Source of the DNA: Arenicellales bacterium
Lineage (GTDB): Bacteria; Pseudomonadota; Gammaproteobacteria; Arenicellales; JAJDZL01
Assembly (NCBI GenBank): GCA_965205205.1
Contig: CBDBFX010000002.1
Span: forward strand, 1,373,506 to 1,437,505
DNA length: 64,000 nucleotides
Reading direction: 5' to 3'
Of the stretch, positions 13,536-55,416 are shown piece by piece (position 1 is the first letter of the stretch; every line of letters begins with the position of its first letter). The translations under genes were made by a program, and so were the position numbers. The notes below the pieces were generated by a model that did no database searches, was not told where the DNA came from, and was given only the letters and a program-made list of their open reading frames with translations.

Positions 13536-13841
13536 ATAAGACAGGACCTTGCCGACCCGGCCGCTGGCATCCGGACCGCCGTACCAGTGGCCGATGTCGC
13601 GGATGACACCGGCCTGACCGGCATCCTCGGTGCCGAACTTGTGCTCGAAGCGGCAGACCGCGGACAGTTCCTCCACCACCTCGTTCGAGCCTTTGATGCA
13701 CCAGCGCGAGCAACCGCCGTAGAACTTCGCGTCCATGCCTTTGTCCAGCATGACGTCGCCGCGCAGCGACCCGTACCAGGCCGCCTCGGCGAGGACGGCC
13801 GCCGAGGCGGCCATGGCGTCCGAGAAAGCCAGAACGGCCAT
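13536..13841 (-). pseudogene. porin P1, 5' fragment with internal deletion
   Basis: MAVLAFSDAMAASAAVLA/EAAWYGSLRGDV...RFEHKFGTEDAGQAGVIRDIGHW...VLSY. About 28 conserved residues (GRLAYVGLSGGFG.LTLGQIWSASYNHA) are missing. Homology ends at 13536 against IS1634-A DNA. Confidence 0.8.
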
Positions 13842-13926
13842 CAGGAGTTTCCAGTCCAGCCCCCGTTCGGGTGTATACTGGAGTCCAAGCGGGGCAAGTC
13901 AATGCGTGGACCCGCATGGAGGTGTG

Positions 13927-17002: not shown

Positions 17003-18830
17003 GTGTCTGCAAGAAAACTCGAAAAAGTGAGATAATTATCTGATATCATGTGAATAATATCGTATAATTGTGAACGAAGAATTGGCCTTTTGCCCTGAAA
17101 AAGGGGCGATTTCAGCCGATTCGCCGACTTTTCACCCAATCTTCGCCAGGCAGACAGGCAATGAGAAACATCATCAACCCGAATCACGAACTGGGCGGCA
17201 TTGACATCACGGCCATTGAGATCGACCACCACTCGAGAGACGACATGCCGGCGGTGCTGCTGGGCCTGCAGACGCTGTATCGCGACCCGCAGGTGAGAGA
17301 GCGGCTGTTCGCGCTGCTGGAGACGGAGGCGCTGCCGGGGGTGGACCTGAACAACGGTCGCCCGGGCATGGCGCTGTGGCCGGGACTGGTGATGGCGGTG
17401 GTCAAGCAGGCGTTGAACTGCGATTTCGATCGCCTGCATGATCAGGTGCGAAACCATGTGGACCTGCAGCGGATGATGGGTCATGGTTCATTGATGAAGC
17501 CGCCGTACACGCTGCAGCAGGTGGTGGACAATGTGAATCTGTTCAGTGCGGAACTGCTGGACAAGGTGTCGGCGCTGGTGGTGGAGGCGGCGCACCGGCG
17601 TGCGGGTCATCAGCCGGGCGAGGCGTTGAAAGGACGCTGCGATTCATTCGTGGCGCAGACGGACGTGCATTATCCGACCGACACCGGGCTGCTGAATGAT
17701 GCGGCGCGCCGGCTGCTGGGTCTGATGCATCAGGCGCAGGCGTGTCATCAGGTGTCCGGGTGGCGGCAGTACCGACATCTGCAGCGAAAGCTGCGCGGTC
17801 TGTACAACGGCATCCGCCAGGCGAAGCAGGCGAAGGCGGACCCGGCGGCTTTGAAAGAATATCTGAGTTGGTGCGACGGGGTGGTGTCACGGGTCTGCGA
17901 GACGCGGGATCAGCTGATGCGGCAGGGGGTGTCGGGTGCGCTGCTGGACGAGGTGGTCACGTTCCTCGGCTACGCCGAGAAGCTGTCGGCTCAGGTGGTG
18001 CGGCGATTGCTGCGCGGCGAGCAGATTGTGCACTCGGAGAAGATCTTTTCGGTGTTCGAGCCGCACACTCGGTGGATCGTCAAGGGCAAAGCGGGGGTGG
18101 CGGTGGAGTTGGGGGTGCCGGTGTGCATCGTCGAAGATCAGCATCAGCTGATCCTGTGTCAGAAGGTGATGTGGGAGGGCGGTGATGTGGACCATGCGGT
18201 GCCGGTGATCAAGGAGACGCTGCGGCGTCATCCGCAGTTGGAGAAGTGCAGTTTCGACCGCGGCTTTCACAGTCCGGCGGTGCAGCGGCAGTTGCAGGAG
18301 CTGCTGACTTACTGCGTGCTGCCGGTCAAGGGACGGCGCTCGCAGGCGGTGCGGGAGCGGGAGGGGCAGGCGTGGTTCCGCGAGGCGCGTCGTCAGCATC
18401 CGGCGGTGGAGTCGGCGATCAACAGTCTGCGGCATCGGGGTCTGGTGCGGGTGCGCAGTCATGGTGCGGCGGGCTTTGCGCGCACGGTGGCGCGGTCGGT
18501 GCTGGCTTACAACGTGCATCGGTATGGGGTGATGGTGCGCGACGAGTTGCGGGAGCGGGAGCGGCGGAAGCGGGCCGCCTGACGGCGGCGGTTGGTCAAA
18601 AGGGGTGTTGAACCGGTCCCGCCAGGGGACTGGATGGAGACCTATGGGCCGAATTCGGCATTCGCCGCCCGACTGACGAAAAAAGCGTGCCAATCGGCGC
18701 AAAACGGCCGAATGTTCAGAAATCTTCTCTCCCCGAACCCTCAGCCATCCATTTTCTTCTCGTTTCGAGGCTTCATAAAATCAACATCGCCGGACATTTC
18801 ATGCGAAAATGGGGGTTTTCTGGCAGACAC
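17003..18830 (+). mobile_element. IS-C copy 2 (1828 bp)
   Basis: Same termini as copy 1. 6-bp TSD TATTTA (16997-17002 and 18831-18836). Lies inside IS-D copy 1. Confidence 0.9.
17161..18582 (+). CDS. DDE transposase of IS-C (473 aa)
   Basis: Full-length paralogue of 2495..3922. Confidence 0.75.
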   Translation: MRNIINPNHELGGIDITAIEIDHHSRDDMPAVLLGLQTLYRDPQVRERLFALLETEALPGVDLNNGRPGMALWPGLVMAVVKQALNCDFDRLHDQVRNHVDLQRMMGHGSLMKPPYTLQQVVDNVNLFSAELLDKVSALVVEAAHRRAGHQPGEALKGRCDSFVAQTDVHYPTDTGLLNDAARRLLGLMHQAQACHQVSGWRQYRHLQRKLRGLYNGIRQAKQAKADPAALKEYLSWCDGVVSRVCETRDQLMRQGVSGALLDEVVTFLGYAEKLSAQVVRRLLRGEQIVHSEKIFSVFEPHTRWIVKGKAGVAVELGVPVCIVEDQHQLILCQKVMWEGGDVDHAVPVIKETLRRHPQLEKCSFDRGFHSPAVQRQLQELLTYCVLPVKGRRSQAVREREGQAWFREARRQHPAVESAINSLRHRGLVRVRSHGAAGFARTVARSVLAYNVHRYGVMVRDELRERERRKRAA

Positions 18831-19824: not shown

Positions 19825-20070
19825 GTCCCGGACCGCTCTGCTTTCGAATGCCGCACCCTTCCCGTCTCTGACCCCTGCTTTAATGACTCTCCAATCGCTT
19901 TCCAATGGCTCAAAATGGAGACAGCGAAATTGCCTCAGCATATAATGAGGTCCACAAACAATAAAATTTTGACTTGATCACGCAACGTTAAATGTCTCGA
20001 TTTGATTATTACAGAAGCAGGGGTGGAAGGATTGAATGATGTCTCAAACAGTCACCAGTCGGTCGTTGGC

Positions 20071-20640
20071 ATGAATACCGCGACATTTGATACATACGCG
20101 GCCGCGAGTGAGCTGCAGGCGCACGGCTTCACCGAAGACCAGGCTGTTGCGACTGTTTCAATGGTTCGCAGCGCCATGAACGAAAGCGTCGCTACGAAAG
20201 CTGATATTGCACAGCTTGAAAGTAGCATGAAGGCTGACTACGCGCAGCTTGAAAGTAGCATGAAGGCTGACTACGCGCAGCTTGAAAGTAGCATGAAGGC
20301 TGATATTGCACAGCTTGAAAGTAGCATGAAGGCTGATATTGCACAGCTTGAAAGTAGCATGAAGGCTGACTACGCGCAGCTCGAAAGTCACATTCAGACG
20401 TACAGTGCGCAGCTGGAAAGTCGGATGGAGACTCTGGAAAGTCGGATGAAGGCTGACAATGCACAGCTTAAAAGTGACATGAAGGCTGACAGTGCTCGTC
20501 TTGAATATCGGATGGAGACTCTGGAAAATCGGATGAAGGCTGACAATGCTGAGCTTGATAGCCGCTCGACCAAACGGTTGTACGTTGCTGCATTTGGTAT
20601 CGTCGCAATCACAGTTGGATTGCTGAAGCTCCTTGACTGA
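20071..20640 (+). CDS. DUF1640-like tail-anchored coiled-coil protein with 11-aa tandem repeats (copy 1)
   Basis: N-terminus MNTATFDTYAAASELQAHGFTEDQAVA matches the DUF1640 pattern. Six ADI/YAQLESSMK repeats. C-terminal TM segment LYVAAFGIVAITVGLLKLL. Start at ATG 20071 is preferred over the track's TTG at 20002. Confidence 0.65.
   Translation: MNTATFDTYAAASELQAHGFTEDQAVATVSMVRSAMNESVATKADIAQLESSMKADYAQLESSMKADYAQLESSMKADIAQLESSMKADIAQLESSMKADYAQLESHIQTYSAQLESRMETLESRMKADNAQLKSDMKADSARLEYRMETLENRMKADNAELDSRSTKRLYVAAFGIVAITVGLLKLLD
20200..20397 (+). repeat. 6 x 33-bp in-frame tandem repeat
   Basis: GCTGA(T/C)(A/T)(T/A)(T/C)GC(A/G)CAGCTTGAAAGTAGCATGAAG repeated head to tail. The paralogue at 59176..59406 has 7 units. 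Confidence 0.9.
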
Positions 20641-22985: not shown

Positions 22986-25595
22986 CTGTCAACAAACCAC
23001 ACTTAACACGAAGAAAATAATTTGCTAAATTATGTGGCATGCAAATCGGCATGCGACAATATGACAAAGAGACGGTAGCTTGGTTCCGGCAGGCGGTGGT
23101 CGGGGGCGAGACCTCGCGGACGCAGTTGGCGTCGCAGCTGTGTGAACGGCTGGACTGGCGCAATGCGAAGGGCGAGCTGTGTGAGGCGTCGGCCCGAAAG
23201 GTGCTGCCGACGCTGGCGTTGCGGCTGGACGTCAAGCTGCCGGCGCCGGTGCGGCCGGCACCGTTGCGTTCGGCGGCCGGGTTGCCAGCGCCGCCGGTGG
23301 TCTGCGTGTCGGGGTCGCTGGCGGATTTGGGGGCGGTGACTTTGGTGCCGGTGGTCGATGAGGCAACCAGCGTGCCGTTTCGGGCGCTGATGGCCTGGCA
23401 TCATCCGGAGGGGGAGCCGCGGCATCCGGGCAAGCAGCTGTGCTGGCTGATTCACAGCGAACGTCATGGGGTGTTGGGTGGCATCGGATTTGTGGCGGCG
23501 GGGTGGCATCAGCAGGCGCGCGACCGGTTCATCGGCTGGGGTGCGCGGGCGCGGGTGGCGAACCTTCATCAGGTGGTGAACCATCATCGTTTTTTACTGT
23601 TGCCAGGGGTGCGGGTGGCGAATCTGGCGTCGCATGTGCTGGGTCAGGCGGTGGCGGCGTTGCCGGCGGCCTGGTGGCGGCGTCATCGGGAGACGGTGGT
23701 GCTGACGTATACGTATGTGGGCCCGGCGCATGCGGGGACCTGTTATCGGGCGGCGGGATGGTCGTGTGCCGGACAGACGTCGGGTCGCTCGCCGAGTGGT
23801 GGCGAGGGGGTGCGGCGGACGGTGTGGATGAGGCCGCTGGTGGCGGGGTGGCAGGCGACGCTGCAGGCGGCGCCGGTGCGGACGTTGCCGGTGGGTCCGG
23901 CGCGGCATGCGGCGGGCGACTGGGCGACCCGGGAGTTCGGTGGGAACGGTCTGACGGATGGTCGTCTGCGGCAGCGTCTGATCGAGATGGGTCGGTGCTG
24001 GCAGCAGCGGCCGGGGGCGCCAGTGGCGGAGATTTTTCCGGAACCGGCGGATCAGCGGGCGGCCTATCGGCTGCTGTCCAATGCCCGGGTCAGTTCGGCC
24101 GATGTGCTGGAGAGTCATCAGGCGATGACGGTGCAGCGGGTGGGCGAGGCGGACGGGACGGTGCTGGTGGTGCAGGACACCACGGTGCTGAACTACCAGA
24201 CGCTGCGCGACTCGACCGCCGGTCTGGTGGCGATTGGTGGCGGCGGTTCGGGCAGTGTGGGGGTGGTGGCCCATGTGCTGCTGGTGCTGACGCAGACGGG
24301 TCAGCCGTTGGGGGTGTTGGATGTGGAAGCGGATTTTCGGGCGCCGGGGCCAAAGACCGCGCGGCGGGCGGCGGCCGGCGCCAAGAAGGAAAGTGGTCGG
24401 TGGCTGCGCGGCTTCGAGCGCACGGCGGAGCTGGGGCGGGCCGATGGCGACAGGCGGGTGGTGACGGTGGGCGACCGCGAGGCGGACCTGTGGGCGCTGT
24501 ATGCGCGCCAGGCGGTGGAACCGACCGCCGGTCTGTTGGTGCGGGTGGCCGCGGGGAATCGGCGGCGGGTGCAGGTCGGCGATGAGACGCCACTGCTGGA
24601 AGACTACCTGGCCTCACTGGCGCCGTGCGCCACGACCGAGGTGGCGGTTCAGGCCCGTGGCGGGGCGCACGCCCGCGGCCATCGGACCGTGTCGGTGAAC
24701 CTACAGATCGCGCGGGTGCGCGTGTGTGCGCCGCGCGGCGAGCAGCCGTCCCACCTGACGCTGACGGCGGTGCGGGTGAGCGACGCGGCACCGGAAGACG
24801 GCCGCCCGCCGCTGCACTGGCTGCTGCTGTGTTCCGAAGGCGAGGCCACGGCCGAGTGGGCGCAACGCATCCAAGGTTGGTATCAGCGCCGCTGGAGCAT
24901 TGAGGAGTACTTTCGGGTGCTCAAGACTGGCACCCGCATCGAGGATCGGCAGCTTGATGCGGCCGAAGACCTGTGCAAGTGTCTGTGCTTCGATGCCATT
25001 GCCGCCTGGCAGGTGTTCGCCCTGCAGCGGGCCGCCCGCCATCAGCCGGAGTGCCCGGCCGAGCAGTTCGTCACCGGCGAGCAGATCGAGGTGCTCTATG
25101 CCTGTCTGCGCCGGGTGCGCATCCGACATCCGCGCGGCCCGCCCAAGGGCGCGCTTGACATCCGCACCTTTGTCATTGATGCGGCCCGCTTCGCCGGCTT
25201 CCGACCGTCGCGTCGGCAACCGCTGCCGGGGGCACAGAAACTGTGGAGCGGTCTGCGCTATCTGCAGTGGGCCCTGCTCGGCTATCAGGCCGCCGTTGAA
25301 GACGAGTCCCGGCCGCGTCGAAGACGACCGAGCCGGCGTTCTTGACGCCGGCCGCGCGGCCGGCACCAACCGGCCGCCAACCGCTCTCGGTCCGACCGGC
25401 CGAGACGGCCGCGCGGGCCGAAAACCCCCTCATCCGACCCGGCGCACCACCCGCGGCACCCGCCACCGACTCCCCACGGCCCGCACCGTCCCCTCACCGC
25501 CAAGCCACTACGAAAAACAGACCTGAAAGGGCCGATCCCTTGCCTTCCGATTGCAAAGGCGCGACATCACTGTGTTACGTGTGACTTCGTGACAG
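22986..25595 (+). mobile_element. IS-A copy 2 (2610 bp)
   Basis: CTGTCAACAAACCACACTT at 22986 and the reverse complement of CTGTCACGAAGTCACACG ending at 25595. 9-bp TSD GGCGCGGAC (22977-22985 and 25596-25604). Confidence 0.9.
23039..25345 (+). CDS. IS-A transposase (768 aa): DUF4338-like N-domain + Tn5-type DDE domain
   Basis: Intact. Differs from copy 3 at only two positions that I can see (CEA/CES and VRP/VRS). Confidence 0.85.
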   Translation: MQIGMRQYDKETVAWFRQAVVGGETSRTQLASQLCERLDWRNAKGELCEASARKVLPTLALRLDVKLPAPVRPAPLRSAAGLPAPPVVCVSGSLADLGAVTLVPVVDEATSVPFRALMAWHHPEGEPRHPGKQLCWLIHSERHGVLGGIGFVAAGWHQQARDRFIGWGARARVANLHQVVNHHRFLLLPGVRVANLASHVLGQAVAALPAAWWRRHRETVVLTYTYVGPAHAGTCYRAAGWSCAGQTSGRSPSGGEGVRRTVWMRPLVAGWQATLQAAPVRTLPVGPARHAAGDWATREFGGNGLTDGRLRQRLIEMGRCWQQRPGAPVAEIFPEPADQRAAYRLLSNARVSSADVLESHQAMTVQRVGEADGTVLVVQDTTVLNYQTLRDSTAGLVAIGGGGSGSVGVVAHVLLVLTQTGQPLGVLDVEADFRAPGPKTARRAAAGAKKESGRWLRGFERTAELGRADGDRRVVTVGDREADLWALYARQAVEPTAGLLVRVAAGNRRRVQVGDETPLLEDYLASLAPCATTEVAVQARGGAHARGHRTVSVNLQIARVRVCAPRGEQPSHLTLTAVRVSDAAPEDGRPPLHWLLLCSEGEATAEWAQRIQGWYQRRWSIEEYFRVLKTGTRIEDRQLDAAEDLCKCLCFDAIAAWQVFALQRAARHQPECPAEQFVTGEQIEVLYACLRRVRIRHPRGPPKGALDIRTFVIDAARFAGFRPSRRQPLPGAQKLWSGLRYLQWALLGYQAAVEDESRPRRRRPSRRS

Positions 25596-29420: not shown

Positions 29421-29525
29421 GATGCATCGGGTCAGTTGCATCGACTGCATTGACCGGCACAAAGCGACCGTCGAAACCTGACTGCGGTTCTGGTTTTCTC
29501 AGGCCTGCTGGCGGCCCCGGCCGCG

Positions 29526-30893
29526 GTGTTCGCGGAAGCGTCCTGGTACGGCTCGCTGCGCGGCGGCGTCCTGCTCGACAAGGGCAAAGATGCCAGGTTC
29601 TACGACGGCTACTCGCGCTGGGGCATCAAAGGCTCGAACGAGATATCGGAAGGGCTGTCCGCAGTCTACCGCTTCGAGCACAAGTTCAGCACCGAGGACG
29701 CCGGCCAGGCCGGCGGCCGGCTGGCCTACGTGGGCCTGTCCGGTGGTTTTGGCTCGCTGACGCTGGGACAGATCTGGAGCGCCAGCTACAACCACGCCGG
29801 CGTCATCCGCGACATCGGCAATTATTACAGCAGTGGCGACACCAGTGGCCGGATCGGCAACACCCTGTCCTACGCCTATTCGAACGACGCCTTCAGCGTG
29901 CAGTTCGACGCCATCATGGACGGTAAGAAGGACTCCGGCAACGCCATCGATCAGTGGGAACTCGGGGCGACGGTGAACATCGGCGATATCGGCAAAGTCG
30001 CCTTCGCCCATGTGAAGAAGGAAGACGTCAAAACGGGCAATAAAATGGTGAGGGTGACCAAGTGGTCCGGCGGCGGCCAGTGGCTCTACAGCCCGAAACT
30101 ATGGTCGAAAAACGCGGAAAGCACCTGGTCCATCAGTAAAAAAGGAACGGACAACACTCTAACTGCTGGTACTGGCGAGTTTCAGGAAGAATTTGAAAAA
30201 GGAAAGGAGATGAGAGTCGTTGTTCAACCAATAACCGTTTATGTCAAGCTGCCAAACACCAATTATGACGCGGATAAAAAACAATTGAAAGATGCGGTGG
30301 CGGGTACCCTTCATGGCCATCCCAGTTTTCAACGAATCACAGGAAGTGGTGGTGATTCGAATGTCAAACTTAATCCCAAGGTTTCTTTTCGGTATGGTGC
30401 TGCGTGTGATCCCACCACCCCACCAAGAGACGAGACTAAATGTGTAAAGACTACCGCCTATCAGGCTGAATTGAAACATAATGCAATAGTCGACAACGGC
30501 GTATTCTTTTTCGCTCCCGGTCATGTTGAGGATGAGATGGACTATGGCGAGAAGTCAAGCCACGTGTCGGCATCGTTTGACCTCGGTGCGGTGACCCTGG
30601 GTCTGGGCCATTCGACGACGAAGTTCATGGATCCGATGAAGACGAAGAAGGCGAAGACGAACTACATCGGCGTCAACGGTGCCATTGGCGACACCGGGCT
30701 GGACTGGCGGGCCTGGTATCGGACCAAGGAGGAGGTGAAGGACAACAACATGACGGTGAAGTCGAAGCCCTGGGGCATCGGTTTGGGCAAGAAACTCGGC
30801 GGTGGCGCTTTGGCCTATGTCGAGCATTGGAACGATGGCGCGAAAGGCGCAAAGAAATCCGGCACGGTGGTCGGCCTGCGCGTCGATTTCTAG
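29526..30893 (+). CDS. porin P2 (general bacterial porin type, type-I central insert); start unresolved
   Basis: EASWYGSLRGGV...RWGIKGSNEISEGL...YVGL.GGFG.LTLGQ N-block and C-terminal ...GGGALAYVEHWNDG...TVVGLRVDF (terminal F). Track coordinates use GTG 29526. The signal-peptide codons (LTAVLVFSGLLAAPAAVFA) lie in frame upstream, behind a TGA at 29451-29453. Confidence 0.75.
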   Translation: MFAEASWYGSLRGGVLLDKGKDARFYDGYSRWGIKGSNEISEGLSAVYRFEHKFSTEDAGQAGGRLAYVGLSGGFGSLTLGQIWSASYNHAGVIRDIGNYYSSGDTSGRIGNTLSYAYSNDAFSVQFDAIMDGKKDSGNAIDQWELGATVNIGDIGKVAFAHVKKEDVKTGNKMVRVTKWSGGGQWLYSPKLWSKNAESTWSISKKGTDNTLTAGTGEFQEEFEKGKEMRVVVQPITVYVKLPNTNYDADKKQLKDAVAGTLHGHPSFQRITGSGGDSNVKLNPKVSFRYGAACDPTTPPRDETKCVKTTAYQAELKHNAIVDNGVFFFAPGHVEDEMDYGEKSSHVSASFDLGAVTLGLGHSTTKFMDPMKTKKAKTNYIGVNGAIGDTGLDWRAWYRTKEEVKDNNMTVKSKPWGIGLGKKLGGGALAYVEHWNDGAKGAKKSGTVVGLRVDF

Positions 30894-31198: not shown

Positions 31199-31976
31199 CT
31201 AGAAACTCACGCCCAGTCCGACCACCGTGCCACTGGATTTCTTTGCTCCTTTCACACCGTCATTCCAATGCTCGACATAAGCCCAGGCGCCACCGCCCAG
31301 ATCCTTGCCCAACCCGATGCCCCAGGGCTTCGTCTTCGTGCCGTCGGCATGCTCCTTGGTCCGATACCAGGCCCGCCAGTCCAGCCCGGTGTCGTCAATG
31401 CCACCGTTAACGCCGATGTAATTCGTCTTCGTCTTCATGGCTCCCGCCTTGTTCGACTTCATCGTCGAATGACCCAGTCCCAAGGTGACCGCACCGATTT
31501 CAAACGATGCCGATATGTGATTCGACTTGCTGCCCGGCTCGCTGATAACTCTTTTGGTGACTGATTGCGTGCTGGCCGGTGTCAAGACTTGACTCGGCAA
31601 ATAGTAGAACGCCTGTATCTCGTCACTAACCTTTTTTGCGCCGGCCGATGTTCCCCCTGGAGTTTCGGTCGTGCCGAAATGTGCATAGGCGTCTATTTTC
31701 ACACACGCATCGGAAATACCATCATCAGTGTTTTTTTTGTCTATACATTCATATTTACCACTAGCCTTTTCGGTCTCAATAACGAACCAATAACTGTCGG
31801 GGTCGCCAACGGGATGATTGCCTTTACGAAGGGCCGTTATTTGAAGGTTGTATAGAGTGATTTGCTGAGTGTCCTTGCTGAGATCTGGAGCGTCAAAAGC
31901 CCCGCCTTTCTTCACATAGACCTTGATTTTCTTGACCTCTCTGAATTCAACAGCACCGGTGTTAGCAACAACTAGA
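31199..31976 (-). pseudogene. porin P3, 3' part (type-II central insert + C-block)
   Basis: ...ITALRKGNHPVGDPDSYWF...SKSNHISASFEIGAVTLGLGHST...AYVEHWNDG...VVGLGVSF. Separated from its 5' part by IS-C copy 4. Confidence 0.85.
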
Positions 31977-33476
31977 TAATTAGTGTCTGCAAGAAAACTC
32001 GAAAAAGTGAGATAATTATCTGATATCATGTGAATAATATCGTATAATTGTGAACGAAGAATTGGCCTTTTGCCCTGAAAAAGGGGCGATTTCAGCCGAT
32101 TCGCCGACTTTTCACCCAATCTTCGCCAGGCAGACAGGCAATGAGAAACATCATCAACCCGAATCACGAACTGGGCGGCATTGACATCACGGCCATTGAG
32201 ATCGACCACCACTCGAGAGACGACATGCCGGCGGTGCTGCTGGGCCTGCAGACGCTGTATCGCGACCCGCAGGTGAGAGAGCGGCTGTTCGCGCGGCTGG
32301 AGACGGAGGCGCTGCCGGGGGTGGACCTGAACAACGGTCGCCCGGGCATGGCGCTGTGGCCGGGACTGGTGATGGCGGTGGTCAAGCAGGCGTTGAACTG
32401 CGATTTCGATCGCCTGCATGATCAGGTGCGAAACCATGTGGACCTGCAGCGGATGATGGGTCATGGTTCATTGATGAAGCCGCCGTACACGCTGCAGCAG
32501 GTGGTGGACAATGTGAATCTGTTCAGTGCGGAACTGCTGGACAAGGTGTCGGCGCTGGTGGTGGAGGCGGCGCACCGGCGTGCGGGTCATCAGCCGGGCG
32601 AGGCGTTGAAAGGACGCTGCGATTCATTCGTGGCGCAGACGGACGTGCATTATCCGACCGACACCTCACAAGGGCCCACACTTGATTCTCAGAACATAAT
32701 GTGATAAAACAGGGCCTACCATGAAAGTAGGCCTGCATCAGTTTCACGCCCAGACCATCGACTGGTTTCAGAAGGCGGTGTCGACGCCGGGTGTGTCGCG
32801 CAACGCCCTGGCCCGCGGGCTGTGCGAGCGCGACGAGTGGACCGGTCCGACGGGTGAGTTGTGTGTGGCGGCGGCCCGCAAGGCGCTGCCGGTGCTGGCT
32901 GGGCGGCTGGGCGTGGCATTGCCGGCGCCGCACCCGGCATTCGGTTCGGGCGGCCGTGAGGCGCCGCCTGAGGCGGCTTATCCGGACCGCGCGCTGCGTG
33001 GCCCGCTGTCAGCGCTGGGTGAGGTGACGGTCGAGCCGGTGTCGGGCGATGAGGAACGGCGGCTGTGGGAGTCGATGATGCGCACGCATCATCCGCAGGG
33101 CTGGGCTCAGGCGCCGGGTGGCCAGCTGCGCTACTGGGTGTGTTCTTCGCGCTACGGTCGTCTGGGCGGGCTGAACTTCTGTGCGGCGAGCTGGCACCAG
33201 CAGGTGCGCGATGCGTTCATCGGCTGGTCGGGTGAGGCGCGGGTGTCGAATCTGAGTCGGGTGCTGAACAACCAGCGGCTGCTGATTCTGCCGGGGGTGC
33301 GGGTTCACGGTCTGGCCTCTCGGGTGCTGGAGCTGGCGTGTGCGCAGGTGGTTGAGGACTGGGAGGCGAAATACAATGTACGACCGGTGCTGGCGTACAC
33401 GTATGTGGCGCCCGAGCATCCGGGGACCAGCTACCGGGCGGCGGGTTGGCAGTGCGGTGCGGGCGGCACCTCGGGT

Positions 33477-35826
33477 CTCACAACATCCCACAGTTGAATC
33501 TATTCATTCTGGATCATGCCTCGCCTTCTGAGCGAGCGATAGGTAAAGACCGCCTCCCGCAGCAGCACATATCCCTGCCACAGTTTCATGACGCCCGGCA
33601 GCGGCTGACTGCGGCGCGGATGAAAACCCGCCAGCCGCGCCACATCGACGACGAAACTGCGGATGTCTGGCGCCTCGCCCGGTGGCGGCTGCGGCCGGCG
33701 GATGCCATAATCGTCCAGTCGGGTGTTCAGCACCAGCAGGTCATCTTCACTCACCACCTCGTCGGCCGGCGTCTGCGGGCGGTCGCGCGCCATCCGATCG
33801 AGGCTGAACACCTCACAGGCGGTGATGGCATCGAACGTCAGGCACTTGCGCAGGTCATCGGCATGGTCCAGCTGCCGCGCCTCTATGCCGGCGCCAGTCT
33901 TCAGGGTGCGGAAGTACTCCTCAATGGTCCAGCGCAGCTCATAGTGCCGCAGGGCGGTGCTGGCGCCGTCGGCATCGGCCTGCCCCTCGGTGGTCAGCAG
34001 CAGCCAGTGCAGCGGCTGCTCACCGGCCGGCGGGTCCGCTTCAATCGCACTGACCGCCAGCATCTCAATCGGCGCCGTATCCGCCCCCGAGGGCGGTCGC
34101 CGCGGTGGCGCCAGCCGCACCCGCGCCGCCCGCAACGCCAGCCGCACCTCGCGCCCCGCACGCTTCCGGCCACCCCCGCAGGCCACCACCTGCACGGTCT
34201 TCTCCGCCAGCGACGGCAACCTCTCCATGTGCGCCCACAGACACTCGCGCTTCCCGCCTGCCAACAGCACCTCGCGGCGACTCCCGCGCCGCACCCGAAC
34301 CAGCAGCCCGGCCGACTGCGCGCGCGCCTGATCCAGCAGCCCCCACAGGTCGCCCTCCCGATCGCATACCGTCACCACCCGCGTCCGCGCACAGGCCCGC
34401 TCCAGCTCACAGGCCCGTGCCAGACCTTCGCCCCAGCGCTCGCTTTCCAGCTCCAGCCGATCCGCATAGTCCGCATCCAGCGCATACACCCCCAGCGGTC
34501 GCCCCGCCTCGTTCACCGCCAGACCCACATGCGCCTTCAGACCCTGCACGCCCGACCCACCGCCACCAATGTTCACCAGCCCCGCCGTCGCCGGCCGACT
34601 CGCATAGTTCAGCGCCGTCGTGTCCTGCAGCGCCAGCACCACCGGCTCCAGCCGACAGCGATCCACCATCGCCGCCCAGTGCGGCTCCAAGATGTGTTCC
34701 ATTGTCACTCGCTCATTTGACAACAGCCGGTAAGCCGCACGCAAGTCCGCCCGCCGGGGAAAGATCTGCGGCAGCGATGCCCCCGGCCGCTCCAGCCACG
34801 CCCGACCCATGCGCAAGATCCGCGCGCACACCCGACCGTCCGGATGCCGGCTGCGGCCATATTCCACAACCGCCCAATCCGTCTTCTCATCCATGTGCAG
34901 CGCCGGCGCCGCCTGAATCTGCCGCACCGGCTCGGCGCACAGCACCGTCCGCCAGCCGCGCACCAGCGGTTTCAGCCACACTGCCCGCACCACCGTGCCA
35001 CCACTCGGCGAGCGACCCGAGGTGCCGCCCGCACCGCACTGCCAACCCGCCGCCCGGTAGCTGGTCCCCGGATGCTCGGGCGCCACATACGTGTACGCCA
35101 GCACCGGTCGTACATTGTATTTCGCCTCCCAGTCCTCAACCACCTGCGCACACGCCAGCTCCAGCACCCGAGAGGCCAGACCGTGAACCCGCACCCCCGG
35201 CAGAATCAGCAGCCGCTGGTTGTTCAGCACCCGACTCAGATTCGACACCCGCGCCTCACCCGACCAGCCGATGAACGCATCGCGCACCTGCTGGTGCCAG
35301 CTCGCCGCACAGAAGTTCAGCCCGCCCAGACGACCGTAGCGCGAAGAACACACCCAGTAGCGCAGCTGGCCACCCGGCGCCTGAGCCCAGCCCTGCGGAT
35401 GATGCGTGCGCATCATCGACTCCCACAGCCGCCGTTCCTCATCGCCCGACACCGGCTCGACCGTCACCTCACCCAGCGCTGACAGCGGGCCACGCAGCGC
35501 GCGGTCCGGATAAGCCGCCTCAGGCGGCGCCTCACGGCCGCCCGAACCGAATGCCGGGTGCGGCGCCGGCAATGCCACGCCCAGCCGCCCAGCCAGCACC
35601 GGCAGCGCCTTGCGGGCCGCCGCCACACACAACTCACCCGTCGGACCGGTCCACTCGTCGCGCTCGCACAGCCCGCGGGCCAGGGCGTTGCGCGACACAC
35701 CCGGCGTCGACACCGCCTTCTGAAACCAGTCGATGGTCTGGGCGTGAAACTGATGCAGGCCTACTTTCATGGTAGGCCCTGTTTTATCACATTATGTTCT
35801 GAGAATCAAGTGTGGGCCCTTGTGAG
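33477..35826 (-). mobile_element. IS-B inner copy (2350 bp, intact)
   Basis: Same ends in inverted orientation. 9-bp TSD ACCTCGGGT (33468-33476 and 35827-35835) inside the outer copy's transposase gene. Confidence 0.9.
33500..35770 (-). CDS. IS-B transposase (756 aa): DUF4338-like N-domain + Tn5-type DDE domain
   Basis: YRLLSNERV, LQDTTALNY, VCDREGDLW, YELRWTIEEYFRTLKTG. N-half: RDAFIGW..NLSRVLNNQRLLILPGVRVHGLAS..GTSYRAAGW. Confidence 0.85.
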   Translation of the reverse strand: MKVGLHQFHAQTIDWFQKAVSTPGVSRNALARGLCERDEWTGPTGELCVAAARKALPVLAGRLGVALPAPHPAFGSGGREAPPEAAYPDRALRGPLSALGEVTVEPVSGDEERRLWESMMRTHHPQGWAQAPGGQLRYWVCSSRYGRLGGLNFCAASWHQQVRDAFIGWSGEARVSNLSRVLNNQRLLILPGVRVHGLASRVLELACAQVVEDWEAKYNVRPVLAYTYVAPEHPGTSYRAAGWQCGAGGTSGRSPSGGTVVRAVWLKPLVRGWRTVLCAEPVRQIQAAPALHMDEKTDWAVVEYGRSRHPDGRVCARILRMGRAWLERPGASLPQIFPRRADLRAAYRLLSNERVTMEHILEPHWAAMVDRCRLEPVVLALQDTTALNYASRPATAGLVNIGGGGSGVQGLKAHVGLAVNEAGRPLGVYALDADYADRLELESERWGEGLARACELERACARTRVVTVCDREGDLWGLLDQARAQSAGLLVRVRRGSRREVLLAGGKRECLWAHMERLPSLAEKTVQVVACGGGRKRAGREVRLALRAARVRLAPPRRPPSGADTAPIEMLAVSAIEADPPAGEQPLHWLLLTTEGQADADGASTALRHYELRWTIEEYFRTLKTGAGIEARQLDHADDLRKCLTFDAITACEVFSLDRMARDRPQTPADEVVSEDDLLVLNTRLDDYGIRRPQPPPGEAPDIRSFVVDVARLAGFHPRRSQPLPGVMKLWQGYVLLREAVFTYRSLRRRGMIQNE

Positions 35827-38534
35827 ACCTCGGGTCGCTCGCCGAGTGGTGGCACGGTGGTGCGGGCAGTGTGGCTGAAACCGCTGGTGCGCGGCTGGCG
35901 GACGGTGCTGTGCGCCGAGCCGGTGCGGCAGATTCAGGCGGCGCCGGCGCTGCACATGGATGAGAAGACGGATTGGGCGGCTGTGGAATATGGCCGCAGC
36001 CGGCATCCGGACGGTCGGGTGTGCGCGCGGATCTTGCGCATGGGTCGGGCGTGGCTGGAGCGGCCGGGGGCATCGCTGCCGCAGATCTTTCCCCGGCGGG
36101 CGGACTTGCGTGCGGCTTACCGGCTGTTGTCAAATGAGCGAGTGACAATGGAACACATCTTGGAGCCGCACTGGGCGGCGATGGTGGATCGCTGTCGGCT
36201 GGAGCCGGTGGTGCTGGCGCTGCAGGACACGACGGCGCTGAACTATGCGAGTCGGCCGGCGACGGCGGGGCTGGTGAACATTGGTGGCGGTGGGTCGGGC
36301 GTGCAGGGTCTGAAGGCGCATGTGGGTCTGGCGGTGAACGAGGCGGGGCGACCGCTGGGGGTGTATGCGCTGGATGCGGACTATGCGGATCGGCTGGAGC
36401 TGGAAAGCGAGCGCTGGGGCGAAGGTCTGGCACGGGCCTGTGAGCTGGAGCGGGCCTGTGCGCGGACGCGGGTGGTGACGGTATGCGATCGGGAGGGCGA
36501 CCTGTGGGGGCTGCTGGATCAGGCGCGCGCGCAGTCGGCCGGGCTGCTGGTTCGGGTGCGGCGCGGGAGTCGCCGCGAGGTGCTGTTGGCAGGCGGGAAG
36601 CGCGAGTGTCTGTGGGCGCACATGGAGAGGTTGCCGTCGCTGGCGGAGAAGACCGTGCAGGTGGTGGCCTGCGGGGGTGGCCGGAAGCGTGCGGGGCGCG
36701 AGGTGCGGCTGGCGTTGCGGGCGGCGCGGGTGCGGCTGGCGCCACCGCGGCGACCGCCCTCGGGGGCGGATACGGCGCCGATTGAGATGCTGGCGGTCAG
36801 TGCGATTGAAGCGGACCCGCCGGCCGGTGAGCAGCCGCTGCACTGGCTGCTGCTGACCACCGAGGGGCAGGCCGATGCCGACGGCGCCAGCACCGCCCTG
36901 CGGCACTATGAGCTGCGCTGGACCATTGAGGAGTACTTCCGCACCCTGAAGACTGGCGCCGGCATAGAGGCGCGGCAGCTGGACCATGCCGATGACCTGC
37001 GCAAGTGCCTGACGTTCGATGCCATCACCGCCTGTGAGGTGTTCAGCCTCGATCGGATGGCGCGCGACCGCCCGCAGACGCCGGCCGACGAGGTGGTGAG
37101 TGAAGATGACCTGCTGGTGCTGAACACCCGACTGGACGATTATGGCATCCGCCGGCCGCAGCCGCCACCGGGCGAGGCGCCAGACATCCGCAGTTTCGTC
37201 GTCGATGTGGCGCGGCTGGCGGGTTTTCATCCGCGCCGCAGTCAGCCGCTGCCGGGCGTCATGAAACTGTGGCAGGGATATGTGCTGCTGCGGGAGGCGG
37301 TCTTTACCTATCGCTCGCTCAGAAGGCGAGGCATGATCCAGAATGAATAGATTCAACTGTGGGATGTTGTGAGGACCGACACCGGGCTGCTGAATGATGC
37401 GGCGCGCCGGCTGCTGGGTCTGATGCATCAGGCGCAGGCGTGTCATCAGGTGTCCGGGTGGCGGCAGTACCGACATCTGCAGCGAAAGCTGCGCGGTCTG
37501 TACAACGGCATCCGCCAGGCGAAGCAGGCGAAGGCGGACCCGGCGGCTTTGAAAGAATATCTGAGTTGGTGCGACGGGGTGGTGTCACGGGTCTGCGAGA
37601 CGCGGGATCAGCTGATGCGGCAGGGGGTGTCGGGTGCGCTGCTGGACGAGGTGGTCACGTTCCTCGGCTACGCCGAGAAGCTGTCGGCTCAGGTGGTGCG
37701 GCGATTGCTGCGCGGCGAGCAGATTGTGCACTCGGAGAAGATCTTTTCGGTGTTCGAGCCGCACACTCGGTGGATCGTCAAGGGCAAAGCGGGGGTGGCG
37801 GTGGAGTTGGGGGTGCCGGTGTGCATCGTCGAAGATCAGCATCAGCTGATCCTGTGTCAGAAGGTGATGTGGGAGGGCGGTGATGTGGACCATGCGGTGC
37901 CGGTGATCAAGGAGACGCTGCGGCGTCATCCGCAGTTGGAGAAGTGCAGTTTCGACCGCGGCTTTCACAGTCCGGCGGTGCAGCGGCAGTTGCAGGAGCT
38001 GCTGACTTACTGCGTGCTGCCGGTCAAGGGACGGCGCTCGCAGGCGGTGCGGGAGCGGGAGGGGCAGGCGTGGTTCCGCGAGGCGCGTCGTCAGCATCCG
38101 GCGGTGGAGTCGGCGATCAACAGTCTGCGGCATCGGGGTCTGGTGCGGGTGCGCAGTCATGGTGCGGCGGGCTTTGCGCGCACGGTGGCGCTGTCGGTGC
38201 TGGCTTACAACGTGCATCGGTATGGGGTGATGGTGCGCGACGAGTTGCGGGAGCGGGAGCGGCGGAAGCGGGCCGCCTGACGGCGGCGGTTGGTCAAAAG
38301 GGGTGTTGAACCGGTCCCGCCAGGGGACTGGATGGAGACCTATGGGCCGAATTCGGCATTCGCCGCCCGACTGACGGAAAAAGCGTGCCAATCGGCGCAA
38401 AACGGCCGAATGTTCAGAAATCTTCTCTCCCCGAACCCTCAGCCATCCATTTTCTTCTCGTTTCGAGGCTTCATAAAATCAACATCGCCGGACATTTCAT
38501 GCGAAAATGGGGGTTTTCTGGCAGACACTAATTA

Positions 38535-39199
38535 TTAAGTGAACCTATTCCGACTTTGGGTGGTGTCATCGTGACCGTCGTCTGATTTTCCATCTGATCT
38601 TCCATACTCACATGGGCGAAAGCGACTTTGCCGATGTCGCCGATGTTGACCGTTGCCCCGAGTTCCCACTGATCGACGGCCTTGCCGGTGTCTTTCCCGC
38701 CTTCCATGATGGCATCGAACTGCACGCTGAAAACGTCGTTCGAATAGGCGTAGGACAGCGCGTTGCCAATCCGGAAGCTGGTGTCCGAATCGCTGTAATA
38801 ATTGCCGATGTCGCGGATGACGCCGGCGTGGTTGTAACTGGCGCTCCAGATCTGTCCCAGCGTCAGCTTGCCGAAACCGCCGTCCAGGCCCACGTAGGCC
38901 AGCCGGCCTTTGGTCGCTTTCCTGGCCAGACCGGCATCCGTGGTGCTGATGGCGTGCTCGAAGCGGTAGACTGCGGACAGGCCTTCCGAGATCTCGTTCG
39001 AGCCCTTGATGCCCCAGCGCGAGTAGCCGTCGTAGAACTCGGCGTCCTCGCCCTTTTTCAGCTCGACGCCGCCGCGCAGCGAGCCGTACCAGGACGCTTC
39101 CGCGAACACCGCGGCCGGCGCCGCCAGCAGGCCTGAGAAAACCAGAACCGCAGTCAGGTTTTGACGGTCGCTTTGTACAGGTGAATTCAACTGATGCAA
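38535..39199 (-). pseudogene. porin P3, 5' part (the only copy with an in-frame start and open leader)
   Basis: TTG start at 39199, then HQLNSPVQSDRQNLTAVLVFSGLLAAPAAVFA/EASWYG... through KVAFAHVSMED and the start of the type-II insert. Ends at the IS-C TSD. Confidence 0.85.
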
Positions 39200-50701: not shown

Positions 50702-50842
50702 GATGCATCAGATCAACTGTATTCACCGGCGCAAAGCGACCGTCAAAACCTGACTGCGGTTCTGGTTTTCTCAGGCCTGCTGGCGGCGCCGGCCGCGGTT
50801 TTCGCGGAGGCGTCCTGGTACGGCTCGCTGCGCGGCGGCGTC

Positions 50843-52120
50843 ATGCTCGACAAGGGCCAGGACACCGAGTTCTACGACGGTGGCTCGCGCTGGGGCATCA
50901 AAGGCGCCAACGAGATTTCGGAAGGCCTGACCGCGGTCTACAACTTCGAGCACGAGATCAGCACCGCGGATGCCGGTCAGGCCAAAGGCCGGCTGGCCTA
51001 CGTGGGCCTGTCCGGCGGCTTCGGCTCGCTGACGCTGGGACAGATCTGGAGCGCCAGCTACAACCACACCGGCGTCATCCGCGACATCAGCAACTGGCAC
51101 AGCGCCCACGAATCCAGTGGCCGGGTCGGCAGCGCCCTGTCCTATGCCTATACGGGTGACGCTTTCAGCGTGCAGTTCGACGCCATCATGGCCGGTGGGA
51201 AAGACACCGGCAAGGCCGTCGATCAGTGGGAACTCGGCGCGACGGTGAACATCGGCGATATCGGCAAGGTCGCCTTCGCCCATGTGAAGAAGGAAGACCA
51301 GATGATGGACATGATGACGCCAGCTACAATCTCTTATAATGTTGTCAATAATGTCGTTCAGGCGGCAGCAGACGGCAAGACAACAATAATGCCAAAGAAA
51401 GTCAAAGTCTACGTGAAAGCGAAAGTAGGAGGGACAGGAGCAGATAAAGATAATAAGGGGAAATTCAACGATGCGGACCTCGACAGTGCCAACGACCGAG
51501 CGAATCTTCGCAGTGGTATTACCATAACAGCCCTTCGCAAGGGCAATAAACCCGTAGGCGATCCCGACAATTATTGGTTCTTCGTTGATGACGCCAGCGA
51601 AAAGACAGGCGCTGCTTATGATTGCCTGACTGCTGACAGCAAGATTTCCGACGATTGTGTCGGAATAGATATCTATGCACAATTCTATACGACATCCTCT
51701 AACCTGGACGAAAAGCTTTACTTTCTGCCGACCGAACCAGGCGTGACGGCGGCCGGCACGAAAAAAGTCATCAGCGAGTATGGTAGCAAGTCGAGTCACG
51801 TGTCGGCATCGTTTGAGATTGGTGCGGTGACCTTGGGTCTGGGCCATTCGACGACGAAATCCATGGATCCGACGAATACGATGAAGGCGAAGACGAACTA
51901 CATCGGTGCTTCGGGTGGGATTGGCGATACCGGACTGAGCTGGAACGCTTGGTATCGGAACAATAAGGATTTCAAAGGCGTGAAGACGAAGCCTTGGACC
52001 ATCGGCCTGAAAAAGACCCTGGGCGGTGGCGCCTGGGCCTATGTCGAGCATGGGAACGATGGCAAAAAGGGTAAGGATAAATCCAGCAGCACGGTGGTCG
52101 GACTGGGGGTGAATTTCTAG
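50843..52120 (+). CDS. porin P5 (type-II central insert); start unresolved
   Basis: Full barrel blocks and terminal VGLGVNF. The track start ATG 50843 removes the signal peptide. The signal-peptide codons are in frame upstream, but the TTG seen in P3 is CTG here. Confidence 0.75.
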   Translation: MLDKGQDTEFYDGGSRWGIKGANEISEGLTAVYNFEHEISTADAGQAKGRLAYVGLSGGFGSLTLGQIWSASYNHTGVIRDISNWHSAHESSGRVGSALSYAYTGDAFSVQFDAIMAGGKDTGKAVDQWELGATVNIGDIGKVAFAHVKKEDQMMDMMTPATISYNVVNNVVQAAADGKTTIMPKKVKVYVKAKVGGTGADKDNKGKFNDADLDSANDRANLRSGITITALRKGNKPVGDPDNYWFFVDDASEKTGAAYDCLTADSKISDDCVGIDIYAQFYTTSSNLDEKLYFLPTEPGVTAAGTKKVISEYGSKSSHVSASFEIGAVTLGLGHSTTKSMDPTNTMKAKTNYIGASGGIGDTGLSWNAWYRNNKDFKGVKTKPWTIGLKKTLGGGAWAYVEHGNDGKKGKDKSSSTVVGLGVNF

Positions 52121-52558: not shown

Positions 52559-53935
52559 CTAGAAATTCACGCCCAGGCCGACCACCGTGTTGCCGCCTTT
52601 CTCTTTGCCTTTCTTGCCGTTGTTCCCGTGCTCGACATAGGCCCAGGCACCACCGCCCAGGGTCTTTTTCAGGCCGATGGTCCAGGGCTTCGTCTTCTCC
52701 ATCATGCCAGAATCGGCATCATATGCCTCCTTGGTCCGATACCAAGCGTTCCAGCTCAGTCCGGTATCGCCAATCCCACCCGAAGCACCGATGTAGTTCG
52801 TCTTCGCCTTCTTCGTCTTCATCGGATCCATGGACTTCGTCGTCGAATGGCCCAGACCCAAGGTCACCGCACCGACATCAAAAGACGCCGACACATGACT
52901 CGACTTCTCACCATAGTCCATCTCATCCTCAACATGCTCGGGAGCGAAATAGAATGTTTCTTCATCTATTTCATTCTTTTTCAATGTGGCCTTATAGCCC
53001 GTAGTCTCTGCACAAAGTGCATCAGTAACAGCAGCAGTTGGTTTTGTTGTTGGATTAGGTGCGAGTGCCTTCTTACAAGTATCTATAGTACCATACACAA
53101 AAGCATCATTTTGTTTGGTAAATTTATTTTCGGCGGCGGCGGTACCAGAAGTTTCAAGCTTCATAACGCCAAAATCAGCATCACTCGCCACCGATTTATT
53201 TGTCGTATGTTTAATTCGTTCATTGTCCTTGTCATAATTGGTGCCATCCTTCTTGACATAAACGGTGAGTGATTGAACAGGGATTCTCATCACCTTTCCT
53301 TCTCCTTTATTGGTCAGGAATAGCGAACCGCTCGGCGCCGTCCATAGCATCGGACTGTACCGCCATCGGGGATTATTGGAGACGGATTTGTCGGTCCACT
53401 TTGTCACTCTCACCATTTTATTGCCCGTTTTGGCATCTTCCTTCTTCACATGGGCGAAGGCGACTTTGCCGATGTCGCCGATGTTCACCGTCGCTCCGAG
53501 TTCCCACTGATCGATGGCCTTGCCGGAGTCTTTCTTACCGTCCATGATGGCGTCGAACTGCACACTGAAGGCGTCGCCGACAAACGAATACGACAGGGCG
53601 TTGCCGACCCGGACGCTGGTGTCGCTGGCGCTGTGCCAGTTGGCGATGTCGCGGATGACGCCGGCGTGGTTATAGCTGGCGCTCCAGATCTGTCCCGCCG
53701 TCAGCGTGCCGAAGCCACCGGACAGCCCCACGTAGGCCAGCCGGCCGCCGGGCTGACCGGCGTCCGCGGTGCTGATCTTGTGCTCGAAGTTGTAGACCGC
53801 GGACAGGCCTTCCGACACCTCGTTGGAGCCTTTGATGCCCCAGCGCGAGCCGCCGTCGTAGAACTGGGCGTCTTTGCCCTTGTCCAGCATGACGCCACCG
53901 CGCAGCGAGCCGTACCAGGATGCTTCGGCGAACAC
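52559..53935 (-). CDS. porin P6 (type-I central insert); start unresolved
   Basis: Same architecture as P2. The track start is the GTG inside the signal-peptide cleavage region. The upstream in-frame leader reads TTG CAT TGA. Confidence 0.75.
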   Translation of the reverse strand: MFAEASWYGSLRGGVMLDKGKDAQFYDGGSRWGIKGSNEVSEGLSAVYNFEHKISTADAGQPGGRLAYVGLSGGFGTLTAGQIWSASYNHAGVIRDIANWHSASDTSVRVGNALSYSFVGDAFSVQFDAIMDGKKDSGKAIDQWELGATVNIGDIGKVAFAHVKKEDAKTGNKMVRVTKWTDKSVSNNPRWRYSPMLWTAPSGSLFLTNKGEGKVMRIPVQSLTVYVKKDGTNYDKDNERIKHTTNKSVASDADFGVMKLETSGTAAAENKFTKQNDAFVYGTIDTCKKALAPNPTTKPTAAVTDALCAETTGYKATLKKNEIDEETFYFAPEHVEDEMDYGEKSSHVSASFDVGAVTLGLGHSTTKSMDPMKTKKAKTNYIGASGGIGDTGLSWNAWYRTKEAYDADSGMMEKTKPWTIGLKKTLGGGAWAYVEHGNNGKKGKEKGGNTVVGLGVNF

Positions 53936-54033
53936 TGCGGCCGGCGCCGCCAGCAGGCCTGAGAAAACCAGAACCGCAGTCAGGTTTTGACGGTCGCTTT
54001 GCGCCGGTCAATGCAACTGACACCCGATGCATC

Positions 54034-54455: not shown

Positions 54456-55416
54456 GACACAACATCCCACACATAAGTCTTTCCATTCTGGGCCATGCTC
54501 CGCCTTCTGAGCGCCCGATAGGTGAAGACCGACTCCCGCAGTAGCACATACCCCTGCCACAGTTTCATGATGCCCGGCAGCGGCTGACTGCGACGCGGAT
54601 GAAAACCCGCCAGCCGCGCCACATCGACGACGAAACTGCGGATGTCCGTCGCCTCGCCGGGCGGCGGCTTTGGTCGGCGGATGCCATAATCATCCAGGCG
54701 GGCGTTCAGCACCAGCAGGTCATCTTCACTCACCACCTCGTCGGCCGGCGTCTGCTGGCGGTCGCCGCGGCGCCAGCCGCACCCGCGCTGCCCACAACTC
54801 CAGCCGCACCTCGCGTCCCGCACGCTTCCGCCTCCCCCCGCAGGCCACCACCTGCACGGTCTTTTCCGCCAGCTGCGCCCACAGACACTCGCGCTCCCCC
54901 CCCCCTGCCAACAGCACCTCGCGGCGACTCCCGCGCCGCACCCGAACCAGCAACCCGGCCGACTGCGAACGCGCCTGATCCAGCAGCCCCCACAGGTCGC
55001 CCTCCCGATCGCATACCGTCACCACCCGCGTCCGCGCACAGGGCCGCTCCAGACCCTCGCCCCAGCGCTCGCTTTCCAGCTCCAGCCGATCCGCATAGTC
55101 CGCATCCAGCGCATACACCCCCAAGGGACGACCCGCCTCGTTCACCGCTAGACCAACATGCGCCTTCAGACCCTGCACGCCCGACCCACCGCCACCAATG
55201 TTCACCAGCCCCGATGTCGCCGGCCGACTCGCATAGTTCAGCGCCGTCGTGTCCTGCAGCGCCAGCACCACCGGCTCCAGCCGACAGCGATCCACCATCG
55301 CCGCCCAGTGCGGCTACGAGATGTGTTCCATTGTCACTCGCTCATTTGATAACAGCCGGTAAGCCGCACGCAAGTCCGCCCGCCGTGGAAAGATCTGCGG
55401 CAGCGACGCCCCCGGC

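Follow-up and report, generated by a model that had tools for sequence, protein, structure and literature searches.

Insertion sequence (IS) elements split by other IS elements have been described from natural genomes and from laboratory evolution. Wolbachia genomes contain 18 IS copies that were divided by other, nested IS elements (Cerveau et al., 2011, PMC3205602), while in Escherichia coli evolved with an activated IS1, the IS-within-IS insertions, self-insertions included, matched the expectation from the target fraction, and no self-avoidance was seen (Kanai et al., 2025, PMC12065110). Local hopping of IS elements has also been reported (PMC4369082). Here, we describe a nest located at 31977–38534 bp of a 64000-nt stretch of DNA (the window; positions 1373506–1437505 of contig CBDBFX010000002.1, assembly GCA_965205205.1, Arenicellales bacterium), where a porin gene (P3) is interrupted by an element called IS-C, IS-C by a different element, IS-B, and this IS-B by a second, inverted IS-B. 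All coordinates below are those of the window. The phenomenon of nesting is ordinary and already documented, and IS-B and IS-C are new members of known families. As a nest, the locus is of little importance beyond illustrating serial IS insertion in a clean form, while the domain composition of the IS-B transposase has a wider reach.

The nested insertions can be reconstructed to the base

To dissect the nest, the 31500–39200 bp region was read, its open reading frames (ORFs) were listed, the ends of the elements were located by exact search and the elements were excised in silico. An initial annotation of this DNA had proposed the topology porin ← IS-C ← IS-B ← IS-B, including a self-insertion, with exact target site duplications (TSDs) at every level, and the in silico excision bore this out. 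The junctions were exact to the base in all three cases. Porin P3 is interrupted by IS-C copy 4 with the 6-bp TSD TAATTA, the IS-C transposase gene is broken at ..YPTDT/GLL.. by the outer IS-B, with the 9-bp TSD GACCGACAC on both sides, and the transposase gene of the outer IS-B is broken after ..GGTSG by the inner IS-B, which is likewise bracketed by an exact 9-bp TSD, ACCTCGGGT. The latter duplication corresponds to codons T250-S251-G252 of the outer IS-B transposase. The outer IS-B has the same orientation as IS-C, while the two IS-B copies are inverted relative to each other.

Removal of the inner elements along with one TSD copy each restored all three interrupted frames, namely, those of 756 amino acids (aa) in IS-B, 473 aa in IS-C and 482 aa in the porin, and the lengths calculated earlier for the outer IS-B (2350 bp) and IS-C (1828 bp) closed exactly. 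The restored outer IS-B and the inner copy, when the latter is reverse-complemented, are identical save for nt 958, which is C in the outer and T in the inner copy. This is the base of the single residue difference noticed previously between the two transposases (WAAVEY vs WAVVEY), as it replaces Ala by Val. The restored IS-C is exactly as long as the 17003–18830 bp copy and differs from it by 3 nt. The restored porin is a single minus-strand frame of 482 aa, which begins with a signal peptide (..LLAAPAAVFA/EASWYG) and ends in ..GLGVSF with a C-terminal Phe.

At a fixed junction, 9 bp will match exactly by chance with a probability of 4^-9 (~4e-6), and such a match was seen twice, while the corresponding value for 6 bp is 4^-6 (~2e-4); chance falls far short of explaining the 9-, 9- and 6-bp matches found at junctions that had been specified in advance. 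Being palindromic, TAATTA was also considered as the outer tip of the IS-C inverted repeat, which was ruled out, as the remaining three IS-C copies have TAACTA, TATTTA or TAGATA on both sides. Because the other copies carry different 6-mers, TAATTA is a true 6-bp target duplication, and IS-C shows a preference for TANNTA targets. Altogether, the inner elements are complete, they are flanked by direct TSDs of the length typical for their families, and their excision restores the host element and its frame. These results confirmed the nested IS insertion in the assembled sequence. The parts of the nest are listed in Table 1.

Table 1. Parts of the nested insertion in porin P3 and copies of the IS-B-related element IS-A in the window
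Feature	Coordinates (bp)	Strand	Description
Porin P3, C-terminal part	31202–31982	-	codons ~224–482, end ..GLGVSF, including the left TAATTA; tblastn 100% over residues 223–482
IS-C, span including inserts	31983–38528	+	TAATTA flanks at 31977–31982 and 38529–38534
IS-C, left part	31983–32664	+	nt 1–682; left inverted repeat GTGTCTGCAAGAAAAC; transposase codons 1–~175 (..HYPTDT); final 9 nt are the left GACCGACAC copy
Outer IS-B, span including insert	32665–37373	+	GACCGACAC flanks at 32656–32664 and 37374–37382
Outer IS-B, left part	32665–33476	+	nt 1–812; left end CTCACAAGGGCCCACAC; transposase codons 1–252 (GNAT-like/DruA domain); final 9 nt are the left ACCTCGGGT copy; 100% identity to inner copy over 813 nt
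Inner IS-B	33477–35826	-	complete, 2350 bp, both inverted repeats; intact 756-aa transposase ORF at 33500–35770; ACCTCGGGT flanks at 33468–33476 and 35827–35835
Outer IS-B, right part	35827–37373	+	nt 804–2350; right end ..CAACTGTGGGATGTTGTGAG; starts with the right ACCTCGGGT copy; 512-aa remnant ORF at 35812–37350 with the entire Tn5-like core
IS-C, right part	37374–38528	+	nt 674–1828; right inverted repeat ..GTTTTCTGGCAGACAC; starts with the right GACCGACAC copy; 303-aa C-terminal transposase remnant at 37369–38280; 99.8% to the copy at 17003–18830
Porin P3, N-terminal part	38529–39199	-	codons 1–223, signal peptide, including the right TAATTA
IS-A copy 1	6722–9330		>99% identical to the other IS-A copies; own 9-bp TSD; interrupts a tyrosine-recombinase-like ORF
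IS-A copy 2	22986–25595		>99% identical to the other IS-A copies; own 9-bp TSD
IS-A copy 3	55417–58026		>99% identical to the other IS-A copies; own 9-bp TSD; 2610 bp

According to the AlphaFold model of the IS-B transposase, the landing site of the inner copy would lie in the loop that ends the GNAT-like domain, upstream of the Tn5-like core and beside residues 255–257, which are the only ones modelled with low confidence in this part of the protein. The 512-aa remnant, which carries the Tn5-like core without the GNAT-like domain, is listed in the source annotation as protein P0128, and it is regarded as an accidental product. When this annotation is used, it should be kept in mind that the 187-, 258-, 303- and 512-aa “proteins” are pieces of two transposases and that porin P3 is a pseudogene. 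Two near-perfect inverted-repeat pairs occur within 32665–37373 bp, one of 813 nt with a spacing of 1536 nt and the other of ~1550 nt with a spacing of 803 nt. The inverted IS-B repeats are substrates for inversion by homologous recombination, hence flip isomers may be present in the population.

Classification of IS-B, IS-C and the interrupted porin

The two elements were placed into families by NCBIfam models, motifs and folds rather than by matching to ISfinder names. Residues 345–744 of the IS-B transposase match model NF033590 (IS4 family) with 272 bits versus a cut-off of 160, and the alignment of residues 291–739 spans the Tn5 transposase in its full length (E=9e-28). The ORF also contains the IS4 signature Y-x2-R-x3-E-x6-K in the form of YELRWTIEEYFRTLK and a CDREGD catalytic box. 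The AlphaFold model, which was based on 35 homologs, had a mean predicted local distance difference test (pLDDT) value of 87, and its core resembled the Tn5 transposase with a template modelling (TM) score of 0.80. The element is bounded by CTCACAAGGGCCCACAC and CTCACAACATCCCACAG, and both copies have 9-bp TSDs. The same TSD length was found at all three copies of IS-A and at three relatives in other genomes, which are 2.3-kb elements with similar ends (TSDs TCCCGCGGC, CCCCCGGGC and GTCGGGAAC). Judged from these features, IS-B is a member of the IS4/Tn5-like family, and its near-identical copies with fresh TSDs suggest that it is active in transposition.

IS-B shares with IS50/Tn5 the transposase core and its fold, the YREK signature, the CDRE box, the 9-bp TSDs, terminal inverted repeats and a single transposase ORF. 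However, it is 2350 bp long, its 756-aa transposase has ~290 extra N-terminal residues forming a GNAT-like domain (DruA/DUF4338), and its ends (CTCACAA..) are unlike the Tn5 ends. In the plasmid collection PLSDB, no record covered ≥80% of the IS-B transposase, and the Tn5-like core alone gave matches of ~30%. The contig scan for further genome copies returned only 39–52% relatives, which belong to other metagenome-assembled genomes (MAGs).

The 473-aa DDE transposase of IS-C matches the ISNCY model NF033593 over residues 21–456 of 473 (400 bits vs a cut-off of 325). The inverted repeat of the element is GTGTCTGC(A/C)AGAAAAC, and a 6-bp TANNTA TSD is present at all four copies in the window. 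On the strength of the full-length model match, IS-C is classified as an ISNCY-family element, to which it is also similar in having a DDE transposase of ~470 aa, a single ORF and short inverted repeats. ISNCY is, however, a holding bin and not a defined family, and IS-C is placed here by model NF033593 and not by a named subgroup. Its nearest relative on an annotated plasmid is an unannotated copy on plasmid MEALZ_p of Methylotuvimicrobium alcaliphilum (39% identity). As a separate observation, IS-C copy 1 (2246–4080 bp, minus strand; TSD TAGTTA) adjoins a 112-bp IS-C-like right-end relic (4087–4198 bp, 81% identity), from which it is separated by the 6-bp TSD only, that is, a new IS-C copy landed precisely on the tip of an old one.

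The restored porin P3 is a Porin_4/Porin_1 protein, which matches Porin_4 over residues 24–206 only (64.6 bits vs a cut-off of 27). The domain match, the signal peptide and the terminal Phe indicate that the interrupted gene encoded a predicted general porin of Gram-negative type. Three other full-length porin paralogs, 54–62% identical to P3, and two partial ones were found in the window. These five paralogs or fragments (13536–13856, 29436–30890, 50714–52117, 52562–54019 and 62833–63306 bp; 49–62% identical to P3) lie scattered among IS elements.

A GNAT-like domain is joined to the Tn5-like core

The N-terminal part of the IS-B transposase contains the Pfam domain DruA/DUF4338 (PF14236; residues 105–227, 76.4 bits vs a cut-off of 27). 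DUF4338 is described as GNAT-like in one paper (PMC10853773), and in the predicted structure, the fold of the N-terminal domain matches those of the GNAT acetyltransferases SpeG and RimI at a TM score of ~0.65. The acetyl-CoA-type motif R-x-x-G-x-A (R194..A199) is conserved over the 35 homologs. The PADLOC model for DruA gave only a weak match with this domain (E=0.0035), and no druB-E defence genes were found adjacent to IS-B. The domain is common to the IS-B transposase and DruA of the Druantia system, but the IS-B protein is a transposase and not a member of a defence system, as the domain sits in a transposase within an IS having inverted repeats and TSDs.

At least 295 proteins of a large database match the IS-B transposase at E ≤ 1e-5, and the best 120 of these listed matches, mostly of ~750 aa, all have the DruA/DUF4338 domain. 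Searches of the accessible literature found no described fusion of DUF4338, DruA or GNAT with an IS4 transposase, and the GNAT-like nature of DUF4338 was the sole pertinent statement met with. The GNAT-like/Tn5 fusion is encoded by a large group of IS4-family elements of ~2.3 kb, which has apparently not been described so far and could bear on the origin of Druantia DruA and on the regulation or targeting of transposases. It is the sole part of this work with a wider reach and is worth a separate look. In the same window, a frameshifted ISAs1-like transposase pseudogene is present on the plus strand (21390–22870 bp; DDE_Tnp_1_assoc, HWEIENRLH motif), whose N-terminal part gave a sub-threshold DruA/DUF4338 match (25.4 bits vs a cut-off of 27). 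By this similarity, a second transposase family may also carry this N-terminal module.

Copy number, donor and age of the insertions

The transposases of IS-B and IS-C and GcvP are all on record for a single contig of 3805514 bp. Copy counts were obtained from the protein clusters on this source contig and are lower bounds. The 90% cluster that includes the IS-B transposase consists of 21 distinct sequences, nearly all of them on the source contig, and is accompanied by two divergent single-member clusters. The IS-C cluster comprises 12 distinct products and one fragment. The IS load is consequently moderate and not extreme.

The self-insertion had originally been taken to indicate either a very high copy number or local hopping. 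The moderate counts do not support the former, while the latter gained support from a comparison of the IS-B copies. Among the 15 of the 21 cluster members that were listed and the two single-member sequences, the fragment P0128 of the outer copy comes nearest to the inner IS-B (1 aa difference), followed by P0129 (3 aa), while the full-length copies differ by 22–46 aa. That no listed sequence is closer to the inner IS-B than the outer one speaks for a hop from a local or sister copy and less for a very high copy number. The variable codon encodes Asp in the more divergent copies, Ala in the outer copy and P0129, and a private Val in the inner copy. Because of this pattern, the inner IS-B appears to derive from the outer copy or from a direct sibling of it. 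We infer that its donor was most likely the outer copy itself (e.g., on the sister chromosome after replication) or a near-identical neighbour. The suggestion that the elements underwent recent bursts is supported by the one difference in 2350 nt between the IS-B copies and the three differences in 1828 nt between the IS-C copies.

IS load of the surrounding region and a second nest

Self-comparison of the window showed that IS DNA amounts to 22.7 kb (35%). The inventory consists of four IS-C copies and the 112-bp relic end, two IS-B copies and a 90%-identical relic, three IS-A copies and two IS-A-like relics. IS-A is 2609–2610 bp long, 78% identical to IS-B in parts, and has the ends CTGTCAC../..GTTGACAG. 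Its transposase of ~830 aa shows the same DruA, Tnp_DNA_bind and DDE architecture as that of IS-B. A second nest is located at 54458–58370 bp, where IS-A copy 3 lies in a partly deleted IS-B-like relic, ~90% identical to IS-B. The relic parts occupy 54458–55416 and 58027–58370 bp, and the TSD of this IS-A copy is GCCCCCGGC (GCCGGGGGC on the other strand).

The guanine-cytosine (GC) content is 69% in IS-A and IS-B, 61% in IS-C, 57% in the non-IS DNA and 52% in the porin C-terminal flank, which is a strong contrast. The IS elements probably came in recently from a donor with a higher GC content, or they retain their own composition. Besides the IS elements and porins, the window contains two paralogous ORFs in a 94–95% identical region (20002–20640 and ~59000–59650 bp), which encode a CCDC90-like coiled-coil protein and include tandem arrays of a 33-bp repeat (11 aa, KADxAQLESSM), the number of repeats differing between the two ORFs. 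The Rfam scan of the window gave no hit. The 40.3–49.9 kb part is syntenic with the relatives L009 and L010, the latter being an Arenicellales MAG, and GcvP is 87% identical to that of an Arenicellales relative. The 10-kb gcvP flanks fetched from L009 and L010 contain no porin or IS genes, and given this, no orthologous empty site was available in these relatives.

Order of events and alternative explanations

We propose, with a probability of about 0.9, that the nest was formed by three ordinary, recent and successive transpositions into an insertion-tolerant region. In the first step, IS-C would have entered the TAATTA site at codon ~223 of a redundant porin paralog. An IS-B would then have inserted into the IS-C transposase gene at ..YPTDT/GLL.. 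in the same orientation, and finally, a second IS-B would have entered the first one in inverted orientation after codon 252. The staggered cuts of the DDE transposases would have left the family-typical TSDs of 6, 9 and 9 bp. The later insertions could have been retained at no cost to the host, as their targets were presumably already non-functional or selfish DNA. To our knowledge, IS elements lack target immunity, thus siblings can be hit, and the final event would represent a recent short-range or sister-copy hop. If so, the nest provides a relative chronology. It also points to very recent activity of both IS-B and IS-C in this uncultured, Arenicellales-like gammaproteobacterium, and shows the region of porin paralogs acting as an IS sink.

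Some observations weigh against this account. Six of the 21 members of the IS-B cluster stand outside the listing, hence an even closer donor elsewhere is possible. Furthermore, the topology does not force the insertion into the porin to be the first event, as the whole composite has intact IS-C ends. Finally, the five IS-A and IS-B TSDs in the window have a mean GC content of 76%, compared with 57% of the non-IS DNA (P ~0.01, n=5). Some target preference, and not neutrality alone, may therefore contribute to steering IS-A and IS-B into GC-rich IS DNA.

This last point leads to targeted nesting, to which we allow a real though minor chance of being right. Here, the IS-A and IS-B transposases would favour either GC-rich 9-mers with G/C ends, in the manner of Tn5, or DNA of their own family, and insertions would be directed to IS elements because these are GC-rich within a genome of lower GC content. 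The TSDs of the three relatives elsewhere are also GC-rich, but the host genomes of these relatives are possibly GC-rich themselves. Four of the eight TSDs start with G (position 1) and end with C (position 9), in line with the target consensus of Tn5. Three of the five intact IS-A and IS-B insertions in the window are found inside other IS elements. These numbers are, however, very small, and when compared with the IS background, the excess in GC lacks significance (P ~0.13), leaving cause and effect confounded. When all intact insertions in the window are counted, 3/9 are inside other IS elements, which is near the ~2–3 expected by chance at the local IS density of 35% and near the outcome of uniform hits on a region with 25–35% IS. 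A more specific form of targeting would assign this role to the GNAT-like domain of IS-A and IS-B as a module that biases landing towards GC-rich or own-family DNA, in a kind of “safe-harbour” strategy. If true, the self-insertion and the second nest would be programmed outcomes and not neutral accidents, but we see only a slight prospect of this.

Returning to the three successive transpositions, the insertion order deduced in the initial annotation holds for the sequence of nesting, but a first hit on the porin is not proven by the nesting alone, since the IS-C ends are intact and the composite would be movable in trans. IS-C could have received one or both IS-B copies elsewhere, and the resulting 4.2-kb or 6.5-kb composite could then have moved into the porin gene by means of an IS-C transposase supplied in trans by another copy. 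In favour of this, IS-C has kept both of its inverted repeats, the window alone contains at least three further IS-C copies whose transposase genes (473–475 aa) are intact, and the outermost event is not dated by the topology. Nevertheless, we consider this order unlikely. Neither a second composite nor another IS-C::IS-B copy was found within the window. Transposition frequency generally falls with element length and many transposases prefer to act in cis, both of which speak against the movement of such a composite. In addition, IS-C copies 4 and 2 differ by 3 nt and the IS-B pair by 1 nt, which fits the outside-in order without proving it. Were the composite to have moved in trans, only the order of events would be altered.

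An assembly artefact, in which the inverted IS-B within IS-B would be a repeat-induced misjoin or a fold-back chimera, is highly improbable: although perfect inverted repeats of 813 nt and 1.5 kb are of the type that assemblers mishandle, a misjoin would not yield a complete element with both ends and an exact 9-bp direct repeat of family length, the arithmetic closed to the base at three levels, a single nt difference tells the two IS-B copies apart, and the source is a single 3.8-Mb contig, whose size suggests a long-read assembly. The earlier argument against a chimera is thereby upheld, as the inner elements are complete, with both inverted repeats and TSDs of family-typical length. Formation of the structure by homologous inversion between inverted IS-B copies was rejected by reasoning, since flip isomers still need an insertion and an inversion would not leave a complete element between exact 9-bp direct repeats.

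Comparison with documented nests

The locus resembles the nests of Wolbachia in that an IS is split by a later IS, the split element can be rejoined in silico and the IS load is high. It differs from them in being three insertions deep in one gene, in including a hit of an element by the same element, and in having all three TSDs exact. Because all three TSDs are still exact, the events that formed the present nest appear to be very young. The likeness to the IS1 insertions of E. coli is that an IS enters its own copy without self-avoidance, which places homologous repeats side by side. There, however, the element was an engineered, hyperactive laboratory IS1, whereas here, a naturally occurring element of the IS4 family is concerned, which resides in an uncultured gammaproteobacterium.

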